IMG/VR virus record: IMGVR_UViG_2645728113_000006
Reading direction: 5' to 3' (one strand)
DNA length: 64,000 nt
From: an uncultured virus (IMG/VR IMGVR_UViG_2645728113_000006)
Lineage: Duplodnaviria > Heunggongvirae > Uroviricota > Caudoviricetes
Part shown: positions 27,368-57,700 of the stretch, in pieces
Layout of the letters: each line of letters begins with the position of its first letter
How positions within the stretch are numbered: the first letter of the stretch is position 1
Translations under genes and position numbers: made by a program
The notes under the pieces: model-generated
The model's input: only the letters and a program-made list of their open reading frames with translations
Told to the model about the DNA's origin: nothing
The model's database searches: none

Positions 27368-27430
27368 CATACCAAGTTTTCTATAAACCTCGTTAAACGG
27401 GGTTTTTTATTGCCTGAAATTCACCTGTAG

Positions 27431-27617
27431 CCAGGACAGCCTTCGGGAAGGCCTGGACGTCGATAGCCGGTAGTGCGACGTACGGAAACAACATCGGCAG
27501 CCCGCGCATTCTGACCCGACTGTGCTTCCAGGGTGGCGCGAGACACGAGCGGCGAGATCGATGCATTGGGGCGTCGACGCCGGGAAGGTCTTTGGCAGAC
27601 AGCGCGGAAAGACGCGC
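27431..27617 (+). ncRNA. Putative structured non-coding RNA
   Basis: At least six hand-folded GC-rich stems, lying between two terminators. Confidence 0.45.
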
Positions 27618-46004: not shown

Positions 46005-46757
46005 ATGGCACTGATCACGGACATCCAGAAACTGGAGCCCGGCGGCGAAATTCGCCTGTTCGAAATTGACGGGACCGAATACGGCGCGGATTACTTGCGT
46101 TTCCACGGTCACGCCATCCCGCACACGCCGGAGGAACTGCTGGCCTACGAGCATTCGGAAGAGGATCTTCCGGCCAAGTCGATTTGGTGGCAGGGCGAGG
46201 AGTACGCGGCCTGGCCGGTACAGATTGAGGGTATTTCCTCGAGCAGCGACGGCACCGCCTCTCGGCCGACATTCGCCGCTGGGAACATCAATGGTCGCGT
46301 CACGGCGTTGTGCCTCGCCTTCGAAGACATGCTGAAGTTCAAGCTGACGGTTCGCGAGACTCTGGCGCAGTACCTGGACGCGGCCAACTACCCCGAGGGC
46401 AACCCGGCTGCTGACCCGACCCAGGAGGCGCTTGAGATCTGGTACATCGACCAGAAAACCAGCGAGGACGGTGAGGCGGTGGTCTGGGAGTTGTCTTCCC
46501 CGGGCGAGATCGACAACCACGGTCTGCCTGGCAGGCAGATGACGACGTTTTGCCACTGGGCAATGACCAATGGCTACCGGGGGCCGGATTGCGGCTACAC
46601 CGGTGCGGCCATGTTCGATGATGAGGACAACCCCACGGACGATCCCGCCAAGGATCAGTGCAAGGGCTGCCTCTCGTCCTGCAAGTTGCGCTTCGGCGAG
46701 AACAACGAACTGTCTTTCGGCGGATTCCCCGCCGTATCCCTTATTGCCCGGAGCTGA
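46005..46757 (+). CDS. Minor tail protein L
   Basis: YRGPDCGY; C.G.LSSCKLRFG; FGGFP. Confidence 0.9.
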   Translation: MALITDIQKLEPGGEIRLFEIDGTEYGADYLRFHGHAIPHTPEELLAYEHSEEDLPAKSIWWQGEEYAAWPVQIEGISSSSDGTASRPTFAAGNINGRVTALCLAFEDMLKFKLTVRETLAQYLDAANYPEGNPAADPTQEALEIWYIDQKTSEDGEAVVWELSSPGEIDNHGLPGRQMTTFCHWAMTNGYRGPDCGYTGAAMFDDEDNPTDDPAKDQCKGCLSSCKLRFGENNELSFGGFPAVSLIARS

Positions 46758-47515: not shown

Positions 47516-47588
47516 GTTGTATGCCTGAACAGTATCGACTCGTCACGACAATCTACTTATCCTAGATTATTTGATACGAGATCAAATC

Positions 47589-48395
47589 ATGTTGCCCGAG
47601 CCAAGGCTGGCGCTAAACGAACTACTCAAGGAGCGAACCCTGCTCTGGCATAAGATTGCTGAAAATCATTATGTTGACGAGTTTGAGGTTCGGCGACTTT
47701 TTAATAAGCTTGATCGGCTGATAACAGATCCCGGTGCCGAGTTCAGTATTGCACCAGCCGCTTTGCATGAGCAGGCATATCTTTACGCTTACCAAATGAA
47801 AACCTCTAACGCCCTGCGGTTGTTTGAAGATGCTCGCCGTGCGGGACTTGATGGGCTTGCCGTATCAATTTCTACGGCCCATGCTTTATATATTTGTGGC
47901 GAGGTCGAAATGTCCAGGGAAGAGATATTGCGTACTGACTATTCTGATGCGAATAACAGGGGGCTGTCAGGGCTGGCTGATACCTGCGTTCATACTGGCT
48001 TGCTGAAAATGGCCAGGGATCTTTACATTCGGTCTGGAAAACAGGGTGGCGAAGTAAGCACTCAAGTTTTGCGTGCGGCCGAAATAATGGACCAGATTGG
48101 CGCGACGGATGAACAAGTAATGCGCAGGATCGCGACGGCTGCAAAAATTATCAAGTCTATGTCTGCGCATCCGTTCATTGCATTTGACCTGTTCGCTATG
48201 CAGGGCGAGGGAATCCTCTACCGCTTCGTAGTGAATGGGAGTACTGAAAGGCTGGTCGAGATTGATATGGCAATTGATGAGGCATTAATCGCTGATTTCG
48301 ATGAGGAAATTGATGACGTATTGTCGATTGGGATTGCGCCTTATGAGTTCGGTTCGAATATGTTAGCTGCGGATGGTTATTATGTCGGTGTGTAG
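47589..48395 (+). CDS. Helical-repeat (TPR-like) accessory protein
   Basis: Long ORF overlapping the HEPN-like gene; atypical codon usage. Confidence 0.7.
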   Translation: MLPEPRLALNELLKERTLLWHKIAENHYVDEFEVRRLFNKLDRLITDPGAEFSIAPAALHEQAYLYAYQMKTSNALRLFEDARRAGLDGLAVSISTAHALYICGEVEMSREEILRTDYSDANNRGLSGLADTCVHTGLLKMARDLYIRSGKQGGEVSTQVLRAAEIMDQIGATDEQVMRRIATAAKIIKSMSAHPFIAFDLFAMQGEGILYRFVVNGSTERLVEIDMAIDEALIADFDEEIDDVLSIGIAPYEFGSNMLAADGYYVGV

Positions 48396-48759
48396 TGATG
48401 ATCTGTTGTTGTTAGCCGAGTCACTTATTGGAAGTAAGGATGAGGTTGGCAATCGTGCGAGCATAAGCAGAAGTTATTATGCACTGTACCATGAGGCTAC
48501 AATAGCCGCATCGGCGCTCTCTTTAAAAAGCAATCCAGATGTAAAAACAAGTCACGATAAATTAATTTCGCGCTTTACCGGTGCGACTAAAGGTCTTGCC
48601 TCAATTGGGCGCGGCATTCTCAAGCAAAAGCGATTGCGTGCAATGGCTGACTATGAGATCGGCTCAGATCTCAATGCGTCCGAGGCGAGGTTCCATTTGG
48701 CTACAAGCAAGCGGCTTGTAAGTGACTTGCGAAGGATCGCTGATCCTGCGAACTCTTAA
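48382..48759 (+). CDS. HEPN-like domain protein
   Basis: RASISRSYYALYH...SH..LI...R.MADY. Confidence 0.75.
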   Translation: MSVCSDDLLLLAESLIGSKDEVGNRASISRSYYALYHEATIAASALSLKSNPDVKTSHDKLISRFTGATKGLASIGRGILKQKRLRAMADYEIGSDLNASEARFHLATSKRLVSDLRRIADPANS

Positions 48760-49018
48760 GATCTTTGCTGGATCAGGTCTTGAACAGAGTTTTCCTGTTA
48801 TCCGCCACCCTGCTACAGTCCCGCCAAACCAAAGAGGGAACGACATGCGGATTTTTGCTGTGATGTGCGAGGACCATTGATGTGATGCTGTGTTAGAGCG
48901 CAAGAGACTTTGGCAGTTTTATATGGAAGAGCGAGAAATCGCGAGTAGCTCCTATTGATTGCTGGCGCTGATCATGGCCGAATGATAGCTTTCAACCGTA
49001 TTAATTTTTTTCCACGGA

Positions 49019-49894
49019 GTGGATGTGCCAGCCCTTATTCCCCAATTGGTCAATGCTGCACTCGATCCTCATACATCGGTTGCCAGCTTGCTAAGGCATG
49101 CGCTAGTAGCGGCAAATAGGCTTAGTCTCGTTGACCTGGCCGATTGGATGAGTTCGGAACTCAATGGCTACAAAACCGCTTCACTGCCGGAGTATAGAAA
49201 GCTCCGTGGCACTCTCATTTGTGAGCACGAATTTGGGGGGTGGATGCCTTTAGAGGTCACGCATGCGGCAACCCTTAATATGGTGTCTCAGCGACCGTTC
49301 TATCAGTCCATCCCGGAATTAGAGCGATTAACTAGCAGCGGCGGGCCTTTCGTCGTTTTTTTTCCTCCAAAGAATGAAGTTTACTTACGCTCATTAATGA
49401 GGCCACCGACTAGGCCGGCAGTGGAAATACAGGCGAGCCAGATATTTGGCCTAATAGAGCTAGTTCGTAGCAGAATATTACAGTGGGCACTAGACCTTGA
49501 GTCCAAAGGGGTTATGGGTGAAGGTATGTCGTTTACATTGCAGGAGCGTCAGATCGTGGCTGCACAGCACTACCATTTTGGCGATGTTACTGGATCTCAA
49601 ATTCAAATTGGCTCGAGTGGGTCGAATCAGTCCATCGCACCCGGTGACAGCACGGGAGCAATGAATGCGTTAATCAACCTGCTTCGTGATGTTCTAGCTC
49701 GGAACGAGATTGATGGCGATGTGGCTGCCGAGTTGGTTGCCGAGCTCAAGACTCTGGAAGCTCAAGCCGAATCACCACGGCCTAAGGCATCAATTATCAG
49801 AGAAACCGCGCTGAGTATTCAGAGGGTCTTAGAGGGGGTTGCCGGTAACGTATTAGCGACCGCCGCTCCATTGATTTATTCGCTGGTGAGTTGA
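49019..49894 (+). CDS. AbiTii-like domain protein
   Basis: LLRHALVAA.RL....W...ELNGY...LPEYRKLRG. Confidence 0.8.
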   Translation: MDVPALIPQLVNAALDPHTSVASLLRHALVAANRLSLVDLADWMSSELNGYKTASLPEYRKLRGTLICEHEFGGWMPLEVTHAATLNMVSQRPFYQSIPELERLTSSGGPFVVFFPPKNEVYLRSLMRPPTRPAVEIQASQIFGLIELVRSRILQWALDLESKGVMGEGMSFTLQERQIVAAQHYHFGDVTGSQIQIGSSGSNQSIAPGDSTGAMNALINLLRDVLARNEIDGDVAAELVAELKTLEAQAESPRPKASIIRETALSIQRVLEGVAGNVLATAAPLIYSLVS

Positions 49895-49926
49895 TGCCAG
49901 CCCAGTCCCGCGCTGGGCTTTTTGCT

Positions 49927-50475
49927 TTAAACATTCCGAGGAGTTCGCCGATCCTTGAGTACGGAATCTAGGTCTCGTGCTAATTGGTCGGCGAGAATTC
50001 CGAGGATTGTCCATATGGCCATTGAGCGGGTGCGGATGACAATCGCATGCGTCTCCTCATCCTCTCCTTCGGGCTCATAAGGCGTGAAATTCTTCTGATA
50101 CACGGCGAACCCGATCGGCTCGCTGATTTTGAAGAATTTTGCTAGCAGAGGCTGCAAGCGCACTGGTTCGTTTCGATGTCCTACCGCGTTGCGAAGGTTA
50201 TTTAGCGCCTTAATCGAATCCCATAGTTCAGGCTCCATAGCTGAACCCACGATTGCCCTGCAGAGCTCCGTAGCAGTGCCGAAAGTAAAAATATCGTTTC
50301 GGCTATAAGGGCGAGAGTATTGGGCTACCCCAGCGGCTATCAGATCATGCAATTGCTCCTCGACAATCATGTGGCCGCGTAGCACTGCCGACAGCAGTTC
50401 ACTGTCCCGTTCGAAGGTGCGATGAAACTGCGCGGTCTTCTTCTCGATGTCCTTTGCGAAAAGTTCTCTTTTCAT
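49927..50475 (-). CDS. HEPN/MtlR-like helical protein
   Basis: VLRGHMIVE and LNNLRNAVGH (Rx4H). Confidence 0.65.
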   Translation of the reverse strand: MKRELFAKDIEKKTAQFHRTFERDSELLSAVLRGHMIVEEQLHDLIAAGVAQYSRPYSRNDIFTFGTATELCRAIVGSAMEPELWDSIKALNNLRNAVGHRNEPVRLQPLLAKFFKISEPIGFAVYQKNFTPYEPEGEDEETHAIVIRTRSMAIWTILGILADQLARDLDSVLKDRRTPRNV

Positions 50476-50568: not shown

Positions 50569-51024
50569 TCATTGCGGCATCGGTGGCCAGCTTTTGGACT
50601 CTTCGACTACGTTGGCGATTACTTCTTCGATGGTTGTCTTTTCGCCGCGAGCCTCGGCATGAAAAAGATCAATTATTGCGTTGAGCATTATTTCCTGTGT
50701 GACGCCATGCTTCGCTGCTTCGCCTTGTAGATTTTCGATGGTGCTTTTCGGTAACGCTAGGACTAGGTCTTTCTTGCCCTCAGCGACTAGCGCCATTTCT
50801 AAAACCTCGGGCTGGTCATCAACATCCTGCAGTTTTTCCACTTCACAACCGAGTGCTTTAGAGAGCTTGACTAATGCGGTCATGCGAGGAACCGAGGTGC
50901 CCATCTCATACCGTCCTATTTGAGGAACGCTTAAGCCACTCGCCTTCGCAAGATCGCGCTGTGTCATTCCCGCGTCTGCGCGGAGGCGGACGAGCCGGGA
51001 AGGGAAGCCTTTCGGGTGGTACAT
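50569..51024 (-). CDS. XRE-family HTH regulator
   Basis: LVRLRADAGMTQRDLAKASGLSVPQIGRYE; alternative start at 51054. Confidence 0.88.
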   Translation of the reverse strand: MYHPKGFPSRLVRLRADAGMTQRDLAKASGLSVPQIGRYEMGTSVPRMTALVKLSKALGCEVEKLQDVDDQPEVLEMALVAEGKKDLVLALPKSTIENLQGEAAKHGVTQEIMLNAIIDLFHAEARGEKTTIEEVIANVVEESKSWPPMPQ

Positions 51025-51158
51025 GCTGATTCCATACTGTGGTGTGGAAAACATGATGTTCGCGAAACATTGTCAGCGCAAGAAGATGATGGCAAATGAT
51101 GTTGACTAGACGTCGTAAATGATGCGTAATGATGTCTAGTGATTGTTAAGGAGGTTTT

Positions 51159-51326
51159 ATGAGGTCGGAAAAATCGCGATACCCGCTCAGCTTGGAGGCA
51201 TCTGTGAAAGTGCAGGCAGAAGGTGAAGCAAAGAAAAATCGACGCAGTTTGAATGCCGAACTCGGACTGTTAATCGAGGAGGGACTGAAATGGAGGGAGC
51301 AAACGAGCAAGCAGGCAGTAGCCTAA
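51159..51326 (+). CDS. Arc-family ribbon-helix-helix repressor, 55 aa (not in ORF track)
   Basis: AAGGAGG RBS; ...EAKKNRRSLNAELGLLIEEGL. Confidence 0.82.
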   Translation: MRSEKSRYPLSLEASVKVQAEGEAKKNRRSLNAELGLLIEEGLKWREQTSKQAVA

Positions 51327-51394
51327 AACGAAGAAACCCCGGCTTGCAGGCCAGGGCTTCGGGTAACGAGATCAACTACCAGGAAGAAATCGTC

Positions 51395-52258
51395 ATGAGC
51401 GATATTAGCACAACCGTTTCGAATGTCATCCCGTTCAATTTCGGCAAGCAGCAGGTGCGTACGCTGCTGATTGATGATCAGCCGTGGTTCGTGGCTAACG
51501 ATGTTTCTGCTGCGCTTCAGTACAGCGAAGCGTCGGCGATGACTCGGCATTTGGACGACGATGAAAAGGGTCTGTCGATTGTGCAGACCCTTGGCGGCGA
51601 TCAGGAAATGCTGGTCATCAACGAGTCAGGCCTTTACTCGGCAATCCTGCGCAGCCGTAAGGCTGAAGCCAAACGCTTTAAGAAGTGGGTCACCGCTGAA
51701 GTCCTCCCGGCGATTCGCAAGCAGGGCAGCTACCAAGATTCCAGCAATAAAATGAAGGCGCTGATGGATGATCTGGTCGACATGACCGAGACGAATGCAC
51801 TGAAGGGCTTGGCGCGCCACAAGGTGGCACATCTTCCAGCCTCCATTCAGCGCAGTGCTTCCGCTCGTATTTATTCGGCAGTGCACACACGTTTCAACGT
51901 GCCGCGTCTTGAGCTTATCCCTGCAAGCCAGTTCGAGTCGGCGTGCAACTTCATCGCGGCCTACGCCGTTCTTGAGGGAGAGTTCATTCCGAAGGGGAAC
52001 GGCAAGCCATTCGACATCCCGGAGAAGCTTGGCCAGTGTGAGCGCTATCTCGTCAGCGCAGATCCTCACGGCAATCGGCAGGTCACGCCGGTGCCAATGG
52101 GGGCGTTCGTCCTGACTCGGCAGCAGTTCATGCAGTCAATGCTTGTTGATCGAGATATGCCAGTTTCCACAGCGGAGATGTTCGAGTTTGTAGCGCTGGC
52201 GACCGAAAACCTGCGCTACCGCTTTCTGTTCCAGGCTGCCCGGAGGGACGCAGCATGA
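51395..52258 (+). CDS. BRO-N antirepressor
   Basis: PWFVANDV; INESGLYSAILRSRKAEAKRFKKWVT.EVLP.IRK. Confidence 0.9.
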   Translation: MSDISTTVSNVIPFNFGKQQVRTLLIDDQPWFVANDVSAALQYSEASAMTRHLDDDEKGLSIVQTLGGDQEMLVINESGLYSAILRSRKAEAKRFKKWVTAEVLPAIRKQGSYQDSSNKMKALMDDLVDMTETNALKGLARHKVAHLPASIQRSASARIYSAVHTRFNVPRLELIPASQFESACNFIAAYAVLEGEFIPKGNGKPFDIPEKLGQCERYLVSADPHGNRQVTPVPMGAFVLTRQQFMQSMLVDRDMPVSTAEMFEFVALATENLRYRFLFQAARRDAA

Positions 52259-52830
52259 GCATGGAACTTGTCACACTAAAAATTACCGGCACGTCACCGC
52301 TGATGATGCACAGCGACAAGCTGGCCAACCCTTTGAATCCAGCAACAAAGGCTCACAAGGAATTGACCGGTAAGCGCAAGAAGACGGACGACGATCATCT
52401 TGCCATTGCTCGCTCTGAGTTTATCGCTGGTGCCTACCACGATGAAAAGCTTGGCTTTTTTGTGCCAGGTGCGAATTTCGATGCGACGTTCTTGGCTGGC
52501 GCGAAGCTCCAAAAGCTGGGCACTCAATGGAAGCGCGGAGCGGTTGTGATGACTGACAAGGCGAAGCTTGAGTTCTCTGGCCCGACAACGCCTGACTCTC
52601 TTTGGGAGGATCAGCGGTTCGTTGACTGCCGCGGAGTAAAAGTTGGTCAAGCCAAGATCATGCGATACCGCCCGATCTTTCTTGAGTGGGCCGTGGAGCT
52701 GGAAGTTGCAATCAACGCTGACGTACTCAACATCGAGGAAGCAAAAAAAGCGATCACTGATTCTGGCCTGTTGATTGGGGTCTGTGAATACAGACCGCGC
52801 TTCGGTCGCTTCGAGGTGGAATATGTCTGA
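52255..52830 (+). CDS. Stand-alone RAMP/Cas7-like protein (candidate guide-RNA effector)
   Basis: N-terminal strand ITGTSPLMMH, VPGANF, RYRP.F.EW, C-terminal Gly loop GLLIGVCEYRPRFGRFEV; fold inferred by eye. Confidence 0.7.
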   Translation: MSMELVTLKITGTSPLMMHSDKLANPLNPATKAHKELTGKRKKTDDDHLAIARSEFIAGAYHDEKLGFFVPGANFDATFLAGAKLQKLGTQWKRGAVVMTDKAKLEFSGPTTPDSLWEDQRFVDCRGVKVGQAKIMRYRPIFLEWAVELEVAINADVLNIEEAKKAITDSGLLIGVCEYRPRFGRFEVEYV

Positions 52831-53281
52831 GTTGACAAAGCACCCGAGCTATAAGCAAGCCGTTGAAGACTTCCTCAAGGAGTTCAAATACGGTGATTTG
52901 GTCGGACATGAATGGCTGGAGGCTCGTTTCGGCATGCCGTCAATGACCGATTCGAAGTCGCTGACTGTTGAGAAGTTTCGTGAGCGTCAGTTCGAGTGGC
53001 TGGCGAACGTCGAGGCATTCAAGTCGGACTTGCTCAAACATCATCAAGTCTGCCTTCAGTCAGTGCGCGGGCGTGGTTATCGATGGGTGCCGCCTCATGA
53101 GCAGACAGAAGTTGCGGTAACTGAGTTGGGCCGGAATGTCAGGAAGGCGTTTCGCGGGAGTGGAGAAAAGCTGAGAAATTTGAGGATTACGGAGCTTACC
53201 GATGATCAGCGACGGGCAAACCTTGACGCTGTTGCAAAGTTTTCCGCGCTCCAGGGCATGACTCGAAAGGCTCTTGGTTAA
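52823..53281 (+). CDS. Winged-helix-like accessory protein coupled to the RAMP-like gene
   Basis: 8 bp overlap; LQSVRGRGYRW wing-like motif; stop lies 3 bp before the array. Confidence 0.7.
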   Translation: MSELTKHPSYKQAVEDFLKEFKYGDLVGHEWLEARFGMPSMTDSKSLTVEKFRERQFEWLANVEAFKSDLLKHHQVCLQSVRGRGYRWVPPHEQTEVAVTELGRNVRKAFRGSGEKLRNLRITELTDDQRRANLDAVAKFSALQGMTRKALG

Positions 53282-53284
53282 TAG

Positions 53285-53556
53285 CAGCGTAATATCCTTT
53301 CTATGAGAGGGCATTGCGGTGCGAATGCATCATGTGGCGTGGCGAGACAAGGTTGGGCGAGGTCTGGTTAGGTCGGGCATGTCTAGGTGAGGGCTGACAA
53401 CAGCGTAATGCCGATTGGAATCAGTCGGCATTGCGGTGGCAGAAGCCGCTGGCAGGTTCTGGTCCGGCAAGTCGCGGCTAGGCCCGGCGGGGTGTGATTT
53501 GATTTGGTATGGGCTGATAACAGCGTAATGTCTCTTCTTGGAGGAGGCATTGCAGT
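53285..53556 (+). ncRNA. Candidate guide-RNA array: three structured repeats separated by two GGY-NN pentamer tracts
   Basis: CAGCGTAAT-hairpin-GCATTGC at 53285, 53401, 53521; 5 nt periodic tracts at 53336-53390 and 53451-53510. Confidence 0.8.
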
Positions 53557-53578
53557 TTTAGAAGGTTTCGATTGACAT

Positions 53579-53599
53579 GGCCCGCATTGCGGGCTTTCG
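53579..53599 (+). terminator. Terminator closing the array
   Basis: GGCCCGC-ATT-GCGGGCT followed by a short T run. Confidence 0.6.
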
Positions 53600-53652
53600 T
53601 GTTGCTCTCTGCCTGGTGATAAAGTCTCGCCATATCTCAACGAGGGAGCGAC

Positions 53653-54101: not shown

Positions 54102-54701
54102 ATGTCAGCACTCGCAATTAATTATCAGCCGATGACTACCATCTTGCTTTATGGGCAGCTTAGGCAATTTGGAAGATCTTTCAGGTTGTCAGTTAAGTCC
54201 CCAGCCGAGGCTATCAAGGCGCTATGCGTACAGATCCCTGGCTTCGAGCGGTTCCTGTCGAACGCCAAGTCTCGCGGCATTGAGTTTGCCGTGTTTCGAG
54301 GGTCAAAAAATCTTGCAGAAAAAGAATTAGGATTTGGCGGTTCCGGAGAAATCCGTATAGCGCCTGTAATTACGGGCCGAAAGCGCGCAGGCCTGATGCA
54401 GACCATTTTGGGCGCCATATTGATTGTGGTAGGTTTTTTTGCTTTCGGGTCGACAACAACTACAGGCGCAGCGCTCATAGCGGGCGGTATCGGTAGTGCT
54501 GCTGGGGGCGTAATCCAAATGCTTAGTCCGCAGGCGGCAGGCCTCAAGATGAGCGCTGCGCCCGAAAACCAGCCTGGATATGCATTTGGCTCGGCGCAGA
54601 ACACAACTGCATCCGGCAACCCGGTCCCGCTCTGCTACGGCAAGCGCAGGGTCGGCGGGGCGATTATTAGCGCCGCGATATACGCCGAAGACCAGATGTA
54701 G
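54102..54701 (+). CDS. Tail assembly protein I
   Basis: SPAEAIKAL; YAFG..NT..GNPVPLCYG..GGAIISA. Confidence 0.9.
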   Translation: MSALAINYQPMTTILLYGQLRQFGRSFRLSVKSPAEAIKALCVQIPGFERFLSNAKSRGIEFAVFRGSKNLAEKELGFGGSGEIRIAPVITGRKRAGLMQTILGAILIVVGFFAFGSTTTTGAALIAGGIGSAAGGVIQMLSPQAAGLKMSAAPENQPGYAFGSAQNTTASGNPVPLCYGKRRVGGAIISAAIYAEDQM

Positions 54702-54760: not shown

Positions 54761-57700
54761 ATGGGCGCAGCACAAAAGATCGATATACACGGCGCCAAAG
54801 GCGGCGAAGGTAAACCAAAAACGCCGACTGAGGCCCCGGACAGTCTGCGCTCTGTTGCTATCGCAAAAATGCTCATTGCCGTGGGCGAGGGTGAGTTCGA
54901 GGGCACGCCAACTGCCAAAGACATCTATCTCGACAACACGCCCCTGCAAGACCCTCAAGGCAACATAAATTTCCCGAACGTGAAGTGGGAGTGGCGCACC
55001 GGTGCCGTGGACCAGAGCTATATCCAGGGCATCCCTTCGGTCGAGAACGAGACCACGATCAGTACCGAGCTGCGCAGCGGGACACCGTGGGTACGGGCCA
55101 TCAGCAATACCCAGCTTTCCGCTGTTCGCGTCCGTTTTGCGTGGCCTGTGCTTCAGTCCGTGGACTCTGGTGGCAACGTCAATGGCTACCGGATTGAATA
55201 CAAGGTTGAGCTGGCCACCGATGGCGGCGCCTATCAGCAGGTGCTGAGCGAGGCTGTCGACGGCAAGACCACCAGCCTGTACGAGCGCACGCGCCGTATC
55301 AATTTGCCGAAGGCCACTTCTGGTTGGCTGATGCGGATCACTCGCCTGACCGCGAATCAGAACAACAACAAAATCTCCGACACGATGCAAATTGCCGGCT
55401 TCACCGAGGTGATCGACGCGAAGATCCGCTACCCGAATACTGCGCTGCTTTACATCGAGTTCTCGGCCGAGCAGTTCCGCAGCATTCCTGCCGTTACCGT
55501 CGAGACCAAACTGAAGAAGATGCAGGTGCCGAGCAACTACGACCCAGTGTCGCGCACCTACTCGGGCGTCTGGGATGGCACGTTTAAGCAGGCTTGGACC
55601 GACAACGCGGTCTGGATGACCTACGACATCAGTACCGCCGACCGCTTCGGCCTGGGTCGCCGCATCAAGCCGTGGATGGTTGATATTTGGGAGTTGTATC
55701 GTATTTCCCAATACTGCGACCAGTTGGTGCCGGACGGGAAGGGGGGCCTGGAACCGCGCTTCATCTGCAACTTGAACCTGCAGAGCAAAGCCGATGCCTG
55801 GTCACTGCTGCGTGACATATCGGCGATCTACCGAGGCATGACCTACTGGGCCCAGGGCCAGGTCTTCACCCTGTCGGATATGCCGCGTGCCACTGACTTC
55901 GACTTCGCCTATACCAGGGCCAACGTCCTTGACGGTAAGTTCACCTACTCCAGCGCGTCGGAGCGTACCCGGTACACCCGGGCGCTGATCAGCTACGACA
56001 ACCCGCTGAACAACTACGACACCGATGTCACTGCTGTGACCGATGCAAAGCTCCAGCGGCGCTATGGTGACAATCCGCTGGAGATCAGCGCAATTGGTTG
56101 TACCCGCGAGTCCGAGGCCCAGCGCCGCGGCAAGTGGGCGCTGCTGACCAACTCCAAGGATCGGGCGGTTACCTTCAAGGTCGGCCTCGACGGTCGCATC
56201 CCGCTTCCTGGTTACGTGATCCCCATTGCTGACGAACTGCTTGCAGGTCGGCCGGTGGGTGGCCGTATCTCGGCGGTGAACGGAAAGGTCATCACCCTGG
56301 ACCGTGACACCCAGGCCAAGCCCGGCGACCGGTTGATCCTCAACTTGCCAGACGGCAAGTGCGAGGGGCGCACGGTGCAACTGGTCAGTGGCCGACAGGT
56401 CACCGTAACCCTGGCCTACTCCGTACCACCGGAGCGTGAACTAGTGTGGGCGCTGGACGCCGACGATCTGGCGATCCCGCTTTACCGGGTGGTCAGCGTG
56501 GCGCGGCCAGAGCCCGGCGTATTTGAAATCTCAGCCGTGCAGTACGACCCCAGCAAGTTCGATCACATCGACACCGGCGCCCGGTTGGAAGAGCGGCCTA
56601 TCAGCGTTGTACCGATCACCGTAGTTCCTGCCCCGACGAGCGTCGACATCACGTCGAACTACTCCGTGGACCAGGGCCTGGCAATCAGCACCATGAATAT
56701 CTCGTGGCCTGCTGTGGCTGGCGCAGTGGCTTATGACGTGGAGTGGCGCAAGGACAGCGGAAACTGGATCAAGCTGCAGCGCACCGGCTCTACCAGCGTT
56801 GACGTCACCGGCATTTACTCGGGCGCATATCTCGCCCGTGTTCGGTCGGTGAGCGCGTTCGAGATTTCGTCCATTTGGAAGAGCTCCAATCTGACCAACC
56901 TGGAAGGGAAGGTCGGCCTCCCGCCGGCCGTGGCGTTCCTGTCCACCACTAGCGAGCTGTTCGGCATTGGCATTCGCTGGGGTTTCCCGGCTGACGCCGA
57001 GGATACCCAGCGCACCGAGCTCTGGTATGGACAGGCTAATGATCTGTCGGTGGCGACCAAACTCGCAGACTTGGCGCACCCCCAAGCGAATTACAGCATG
57101 CAGGCCCTAAAGGCCGGCGCGCAGTTCTTCTTCTGGGCTCGCCTGGTCGACCGTACCGGTAACGTTGGCCCGTTCTATCCCGTCGGTAACGGCGTGATGG
57201 GGATGGCAAGTGCCGATGCGGCGCCGGTGCTGGATTTGATCGCCGGGCAGATTGGGCGTACGGAGCTGGGCAAGGACATCACGGACGAGATCGACAAGAT
57301 CCCAGGGCTGCAGGCGCAGATCGACGCGCTCGATGGGTTGTCCGCCTACGACCCGGAGTCGACCTACCTTGAGTTTGACCTAGTGGTGGTTGGTAAGCGG
57401 ATCTACCAGGCCACCGGCCCGGTACCCGTCGATACGCCACCACCGAATGCCAACTACTGGCAGGACGTGGGTCAGGCGGTGGTCACTGCCAATGGCCTTG
57501 CGCGTCAAGTTGAGATCAATACCACCAGCATCACCGAACTGGACGGGGTGGTCACGGCTCAGGCGTCAAGTCTTCAGGCGTTGCAATCGGCTTATCGGGA
57601 CGACACGGGGGAGGGGGATCTGGTTGATGCACTCCAGGGCTACAACGCCTCGGCGAGTTTCGCGCAGGAAGTGAAGACGCAGGCCACGAAGAACGCAGCC

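Follow-up and report, generated by a model that had tools for sequence, protein, structure and literature searches.

Three hairpins that keep their pairing while changing their letters stand directly behind a pair of overlapping genes in the DNA of an uncultured tailed phage, and they raise the question of what such a series does. The window, as we call the whole 64,000-nt stretch that was analysed, contains CAGCGTAAT exactly three times, at 53285, 53401 and 53521; this confirms the shared outer stem and the spacings of 116 and 120 nt that an earlier note had read from the letters. The region is, with near certainty, the guide array of a type II VIPR system in a temperate phage. From the sequence and its relatives, we further consider it probable that the array is cut by RNase III, that its guides act against the tail genes I and J of rival phages, and that the phage's own copies of these genes have been altered.

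The VIPR locus and its gene neighbourhood

The locus is a type II VIPR of a Pseudomonas-type prophage, a previously described kind of system whose defining parts are vipr, vap1 and 12-unit YNNGG tracts (bioRxiv 10.64898/2026.04.26.720920). The following genes and terminal element flank the hairpins:

51290..52258, + strand: Bro-N antirepressor gene, its stop overlapping the vipr start (Pfam Bro-N E 2.7e-25; PHROG 245 anti-repressor)
52255..52830, + strand: vipr gene, a RAMP-like RNA-binding effector (PDB 36pp, SUSP1 Vipr, E 1.3e-46, 43% identity)
52823..53281, + strand: vap1 accessory gene (24% identical to the SUSP1 gene downstream of vipr by BLASTP, E 7e-12; phrog_5926)
53579..53595, + strand: terminator-like hairpin ending the array (from a consensus scan alone, with 4 such hairpins in the region and 3.5 expected)

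Vipr is a RAMP, a family that includes Cas6 (10.64898/2026.04.26.720920), and the protein encoded here is a RAMP homologue sitting outside any CRISPR locus. Relative to SUSP1, it keeps H17, K33, R138 and R179, with D177 replaced by E and W178 by Y. The equivalents of H, R138 and R179 are invariant or nearly so across 103 Vipr homologues, and most of the 103 homologous loci carry GGY tracts on the vipr strand. The position of vap1, 3' of vipr, assigns the locus to type II. A Pfam search returned no domain for Vipr or Vap1, and a single-sequence fold of Vap1 reached a pLDDT of 56. The closest named locus belongs to Pseudomonas sp. KBW05 (Vipr identity 99%). The cultured Pseudomonas phage Medea1 (MW862109.1:8595-9164) encodes a Vipr that is 82% identical, annotated as hypothetical and located beside a Rha-family regulator.

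The window covers a lambda-like tail region with a PHROG tail assembly protein and the central tail fibre J. On the 5' side of the hairpins stand a minus-strand HTH repressor gene, a weak Arc-like ORF (Pfam E 0.12), the Bro-N antirepressor gene and the two overlapping ORFs. This gene order, from 50569 to 53600, resembles that of the P22 immI region, so VIPR may be co-expressed with the antirepressor. ATGATG-like repeats at 51053-51150 are possible operators, and a sigma-70 scan of the + strand yielded no promoter that passed.

Elsewhere in the window, accessory genes lie amid the tail genes at 47571-50475; they include an AbiTii-domain ORF (49019-49894, Pfam E 2.3e-36) and an ORF pair of unassigned function (47571-48759). 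Rfam places a Proteo-phage-1 RNA at 27425-27502 (78 bits). In G000, contigs C3, C5 and C6 show identical matches at corresponding offsets, which indicates that part of this assembly is present three times (contamination figure 9.18).

Hairpins, guide tracts and RNase III features

The three long hairpins are listed with their scores under the six-feature RNase III rules described below:

53285..53321, + strand: long hairpin 1, directly 3' of the vap1 stop; fold z -4.3; rule score 5/6, with one A x C mismatch; predicted RNase III cuts after 53290 and 53317
53401..53438, + strand: long hairpin 2; fold z -6.4; rule score 6/6; predicted RNase III cuts after 53406 and 53434
53521..53557, + strand: long hairpin 3; fold z -5.9; rule score 6/6; predicted RNase III cuts after 53526 and 53553

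For each hairpin, none of 200 shuffled sequences folded as stably. Below GTAAT the stem extends through a C-G pair, a G x G mismatch, an A-U pair and a C-G pair. The inner arms and loops are as the earlier note gave them, varying yet paired, except that copy 1 is not fully paired, the A of GTAATA facing a C. The small GCTG-A(C/T)AA-CAGC hairpins described ahead of copies 2 and 3 are likewise present in the sequence.

Covariation was assessed on 37 distinct copies, the three from the window and 34 from related loci that had been selected as foldable hairpins, aligned with MAFFT without fitting to the structure. In this set, 97.5% of cells are paired, two-sided changes are seen at ten of 16 pairs, and covariation scores 0.555, compared with 0.159 for shuffled and at most 0.115 for slid controls; because the copies are related and entered the set as hairpins, these figures show kept structure rather than probabilities. 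The covariation proposed from three copies thus holds among homologous loci, where its absence had been named as part of the outcome that would speak against it.

We surveyed 70 loci with a Vipr identity of at least 68% and obtained 95 distinct long hairpins, 89 of which have a core of 28-30 nt (allowed range 26-33). The repeating unit is a long hairpin, a mini-hairpin, a guide tract and a second mini-hairpin, and the stem base shows sequence conservation. Among the 69 loci that contain a tract, a long hairpin stands ahead of the first guide in 44 and behind the last guide in 17-19, with detection incomplete in the more distant loci, a distribution that argues for punctuation rather than an obligatory 3' tail. 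Stems topped by UG/UA occur in 78 of 113 inter-guide gaps at Vipr identities of at least 45% (1.9 expected) and none of five below 45%. Divided into three identity bands, the counts are 34/44, 13/30 and 31/39, with fewer than one expected in each. On distant loci, a generic hairpin finder returned scores scattered from 1 to 6 and overlooked many hairpins.

Some loci have arrays of other appearance. In L087-L097, inspected by eye, the UG/UA top is kept and the proximal stem contains an internal loop, which could give a single-strand cut. L046:5089-5234 and L051:5089-5234 hold very long guide tracts of ~30 units with internal duplications. In two actinobacterial VIPR loci, L016:3598-3940 and L017:3724-3900, short elements take the place of the long hairpins between guides, and these elements contain a tRNA T-loop motif, GGTTCGA[A/C]TCC, in a stem ending in CCCAC. 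The separators may mimic tRNA halves and be cut by RNase P or Z, which would be another maturation route; ARAGORN called no tRNA in L016 or L017.

Between the long hairpins of the window lie two tracts with a 5-nt period, bordered by mini-hairpins:

53318..53331, + strand: 5' mini-hairpin of guide RNA 1 (GGTGC-loop-GCATC), from the fold of the predicted product; begins exactly at the predicted cut
53333..53392, + strand: guide 1, 12 YNNGG units; its NN code corresponds to V-D-K-W-E-L-Y-R-I codons, sense, in tail gene J of related phages
53393..53404, + strand: 3' mini-hairpin of guide RNA 1, whose CAGC half can pair instead into the base of long hairpin 2
53453..53512, + strand: guide 2, 12 YNNGG units; its NN code corresponds, antisense, to (E)-N-T-P-G-Y-A-F-G-S codons in tail assembly gene I of related phages
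53513..53524, + strand: 3' mini-hairpin of guide RNA 2

These GGY/NN tracts contain 9 GGY per 12 units, a count not reached when the region was block-shuffled 2000 times (maximum 7), and they are the only ones in the window with at least 7 GGY in 10 units. Their length falls within the 9-16 YNNGG units of VIPR vrRNAs. Targeting information is carried by the NN dinucleotides of these tracts. Each tract is followed by a conserved mini-hairpin, a SUSP1-type pseudoknot tail being absent, and the 5' mini-hairpin of guide RNA 1 is the commonest sequence behind the long hairpin in relatives. The suggestion that CRISPR finders would miss the array was right in kind, but there is no CRISPR-like repeat-spacer array here: the copies share only short ends, and the DNA between them is GGY/NN periodic.

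The features of the stems make it likely, in our assessment, that the long hairpins are host RNase III sites separating the guides. As given in the accessible part of PMC1540722, 11 bp separate the cut from the loop in the minimal E. coli substrate, its proximal box consists of A-U-type pairs closing with G-C, with G-C at position 2 strongly inhibitory, and its distal box is U-G/U-A. The 22-bp span in the part of a review available to us (PMC3867540) places the distal box at pairs 9-10, and that review describes the distal box as having no conserved sequence across substrates or species. Positions between the two RNase III cuts are paired, often as G-C, according to the accessible portion of PMC6212723.

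We applied a six-feature score based on the E. coli rules, and set after the pair table had been viewed, to 87 hairpins (the 95 minus eight false or off-length ones). The average is 4.95 out of 6 in one register and 0.2-2.0 in the seven others. The 38 distinct arms score 4.79, whereas 2000 pair permutations reach at most 1.95 in the same register and 2.82 in the best of five, although this test overstates significance since the hairpins are kin. A 13-bp core with the cut after pair 2 gives at least 11 bp from cut to loop. The proximal-box pairs W-W', A-U, W-W' and G-C are present in 25, 26, 37 and 25 of the 38 arms, respectively, and the inhibitory G-C or C-G at position 2 in only one, compared with 72% in the stem middle. 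U-G and U-A occupy pairs 9 and 10 in 36 and 33 of the 38 arms. The mismatch of hairpin 1 falls inside the proximal box. The view that these repeats conserve structure and not sequence therefore applies to the middle of the stem, whose freedom to vary explains it, but not to the stem as a whole, because letters are conserved at exactly the positions that RNase III reads.

The AT-rich SUSP1 locus carries five such hairpins with scores of 5-6, two of the six points being the search anchor. One stem lies ahead of each of its four guides, with the predicted 3' cut on the first pentamer in 4/4, and the predicted products are 105, 121 and 116 nt long, close to the ~100-nt RNAs with a ~40-nt tail reported for SUSP1 (10.64898/2026.04.26.720920). 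The host genome of our phage has an intact RNase III gene. In two RNA libraries, contigs of relatives span the vap1 3' end together with the array; these are assembled contigs, in which RNA ends are not readable. In the searchable text of four preprints on VIPR, 'RNase III' does not occur, nor does 'ribonuclease III' in that of three, and 'RNase' is absent from the supplement PDF of the discovery preprint (10.64898/2026.04.26.720920). The covariation analysis in the text of the discovery preprint covers the SUSP1 tail only.

These features suggest the following course of events. The array would probably be transcribed along with ant-vipr-vap1, as the overlapping reading frames indicate. RNase III would find in each stem the 11 bp from cut to loop, the A-U-rich proximal box, the U-G/U-A distal box and a free but paired middle. 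The cleavage points of the enzyme would follow CAGCGU in the 5' strand and CAUUGC in the 3' strand. Cutting in hairpin 1 would detach guide RNA 1 at its 5' end from the mRNA, and cutting in hairpin 3 would set the 3' end of guide RNA 2. The predicted guide RNAs, 53318-53406 (89 nt) and 53435-53526 (92 nt), appear to be capped by mini-hairpins at their 5' and 3' ends; the predicted products start on base 1 of the 5' mini-hairpin and stop two bases past the 3' mini-hairpin. The varied stem middle may also limit recombination between copies. Vipr would then coat the GGY/NN tract and bind dsDNA by the one-base-skip code, as shown for SUSP1. Guide 1 would be directed to J and guide 2 to I of related phages, and the late tail operon would be repressed; the phage's own I and J differ at the read positions, and it should be spared.

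A processing signal is thus the best reading of what the earlier note had called an RNA scaffold or processing signal, the survey counts before the first and after the last guide making a hairpin that is cut out likelier than one kept as a scaffold. Retention of the long hairpin in the mature RNA, as a structured 3' tail equivalent to the SUSP1 pseudoknot or as a loading scaffold for Vipr or Vap1, seems to us rather improbable. It draws on the definition of a vrRNA as a tract plus a structured 3' tail (10.64898/2026.04.26.720920), on the long hairpin that stands behind both guides here, and on Mini-III-independent binding without cutting, reported at some RNase III sites in the part of PMC1540722 available. 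Many guides in the survey, however, have no long hairpin on their 3' side, and SUSP1 has a pseudoknot tail plus a separate long hairpin. P. fulva complexes, as described in the accessible part of 10.64898/2026.04.26.720927, have no 3' marker like the SUSP1 pseudoknot. We also regard as unlikely a maturation in which Vipr or Vap1 cuts the stem in the manner of Cas6, or in which RNase E does the cutting and the hairpins serve only as barriers to exonucleases. Such routes would accord with the membership of Vipr in Cas6's family, with the conserved sequence of the stem base and with the hammerhead ribozymes found among the routes of other VIPR types (10.64898/2026.04.26.720920), but they leave unexplained the joint fit of stem length, both boxes and the avoided pair in a GC-rich Pseudomonas clade as well as in AT-rich SUSP1.

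Three similar hairpins at near-regular spacing, close to a RAMP-family gene, might also be taken for a CRISPR-like array whose repeats have degenerated and whose spacers were acquired, for a run of terminators or for DNA cruciforms. The supposed spacers are nevertheless 5-nt periodic and decode only with a one-base skip. Rfam has no match within the array and one, unrelated, in the window; 0/3 hairpins were called terminator-like, and the frequent G-U pairs fit RNA rather than DNA. The match to Vipr and the gapped targets described in the next section largely refute these readings, which we consider very improbable. Cleavage by RNase III between the guides remains the reading that we prefer.

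Predicted guide targets and the phage's own tail genes

Targets were searched with a one-base skip, using 9-unit cores picked after a likeness to the phage's own genes had been noticed; other skip lengths were tried on the own genome. The guide 1 core matches at least 120 IMG/VR contigs, and in 80/80 matches listed it falls in J, sense and in codon phase, at VDKWELYRI. For the guide 2 core there are at least 120 IMG/VR matches, 79/80 of those listed being in tail assembly gene I, antisense, at NTPGYAFGS. Among the matches listed for both guides, the skipped base is the wobble position of the target. The first and the last one or two units of both guides are unmatched to the targets, and because of these end units the full guide 2 matches none of 401 genus genomes when up to 3 mismatches are allowed, and its last nine units have no viral match.

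Of the clade's 115 distinct guides, 15 have matches in the tail region of vipr-less relatives in at least three loci, compared with one of 115 shuffled guides. Among the 16 guides listed, the best match in the own locus is 13-17/20 versus 18-20/20 in relatives. The guides of L002, L028, L066 and L067 decode to further tail sites, namely the 3' end and the middle of gene I plus two motifs from the minor tail protein L family, which indicates that tail-module targeting is common in the clade. The window ORF at 46005-46757 contains altered versions of these L-family motifs.

The phage's own genome was considered as a target and rejected, its best sites scoring 19 and 20/24 versus 17-19 for shuffled guides, a difference that is not significant alone. 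The host assembly contains no target prophage and one J gene only.

The own counterparts of the two targets lie downstream of the array:

55676..55711, + strand: own counterpart of the guide 1 target, gene J; 16/18 core positions, with Lys changed to Ile, Leu written as TTG and heavy third-position change
54561..54596, + strand: own counterpart of the guide 2 target, gene I; 14/18 core positions, with Thr changed to Gln and Ser as TCG, not AGY

The own J reads VDIWELYRI. Among 79 J genes with no vipr in their flank, 64 match at 18/18 positions and none has the Ile; TTG or TTA alone occurs in five. The Ile form is present in 6 IMG/VR contigs, several of them near-copies, and the J guide accompanies it in 5/5 with upstream DNA, the sixth being without that DNA. 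A phage with a 98% identical Vipr and no J guide has an intact J site. In a tree of the flanking J codons (90 rows), the four carriers do not form one clade (p-AU 2e-11), and between the window and L001 the flanks are 87.5% identical while ~20 codons around the J site are identical. This patch therefore follows the guide and not the ancestry of J. In the L046/L051 clade, J reads VDRWEMYRI in the absence of a J guide.

When all 12 units are counted, the own J site matches at 19/24 and rival sites at 19-21/24; sparing would thus depend on the two core mismatches, whose effect is a prediction. At the own footprints, first and second codon positions have not changed to an unusual degree (as much change is present in 449 of 1153 windows for J and in 64 of 165 for I). 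Third-position divergence of the own J footprint exceeds that of all 1153 distant 12-codon windows, though the code should skip these positions. Either third-position bases may matter for binding or the J patch may have been imported whole.

For gene I, 57 of 73 genes without vipr match at 18/18, and the full site occurs in 0/25 vipr loci, guide or not. Because these loci include some without this guide, lineage alone may explain the gene I changes, and the link of the gene I change to guide 2 is weak. Lower self-match has been reported for orphan vrRNAs in the accessible part of 10.64898/2026.10.15.759431.

Comparison with known systems

VIPR itself is published, and the maturation step and the guide-linked patch in a tail gene appear to be undescribed. 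The VIPR preprint texts, in the portions available, give the targeting code and structures and name no enzyme for cutting type II arrays. The same portions contain no description of the long inter-guide hairpin with its RNase III signature, though SUSP1 carries both. If true, RNase III maturation would provide a rule for multiplex guide arrays, with several guides per transcript, and would make RNase III a host factor limiting where such a tool works. To judge by the decoded guides, the phage targets its own kin through tail genes that are essential and conserved, and it carries an associated change in its own gene; between them, the own and rival sites may provide naturally occurring examples of mismatches that VIPR tolerates and of others that it does not. 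We put at about even the chance of three generalisations holding jointly: that type II VIPR arrays are generally matured by RNase III at diversified hairpins, that the guides are a kin-exclusion weapon against tail genes also needed by self, and that the J immunity patch stays with its guide while the rest of J recombines.

The type II VIPR of SUSP1 and of the P. fulva prophage, as far as the accessible parts of the reports describe them (10.64898/2026.04.26.720920, 10.64898/2026.04.26.720927 and 10.64898/2026.10.15.759431), have the same vipr and vap1, a downstream array of 12-unit YNNGG tracts and the wobble skip, and are alike in their prophage location and in targets on either strand in rival phages. 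In contrast to SUSP1, each guide RNA here is predicted to end in a 12-nt mini-hairpin instead of a 40-nt pseudoknot tail, and to start with another mini-hairpin. An antirepressor gene, and no guide, lies upstream of vipr, unlike in SUSP1 and P. fulva. The guides here decode to structural tail genes of closely related phages; the P. fulva clade is reported, in the available text, to target mostly lysis-lysogeny regulators. The residues that the corresponding paper, in its accessible part, gives as H17 and D175 in P. fulva Vipr are H19 and E178 in the window.

The stems resemble the E. coli RNase III substrate uR1.1, derived from phage T7 R1.1, which in the accessible part of PMC1540722 has the same 11-bp helix from cut to loop, the same proximal W-W'/A-U/W-W'/G-C, the distal U-G and U-A and a free loop. 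They also share the paired G-C between the two cut sites described in the available part of PMC6212723. They differ from uR1.1 in punctuating a guide-RNA array rather than an mRNA, their cleavage being predicted. A further difference is the ~4-6 bp with a G x G mismatch below the cut.

CRISPR arrays are matured by Cas6, or by RNase III together with tracrRNA. The array described here is similar in having one precursor with several guides, cuts at repeated elements and a RAMP-family effector. Unlike CRISPR, it has neither near-identical repeats nor contiguous spacers, no cas1/cas2 or tracrRNA was seen, and the duplex that RNase III would cut is intramolecular.
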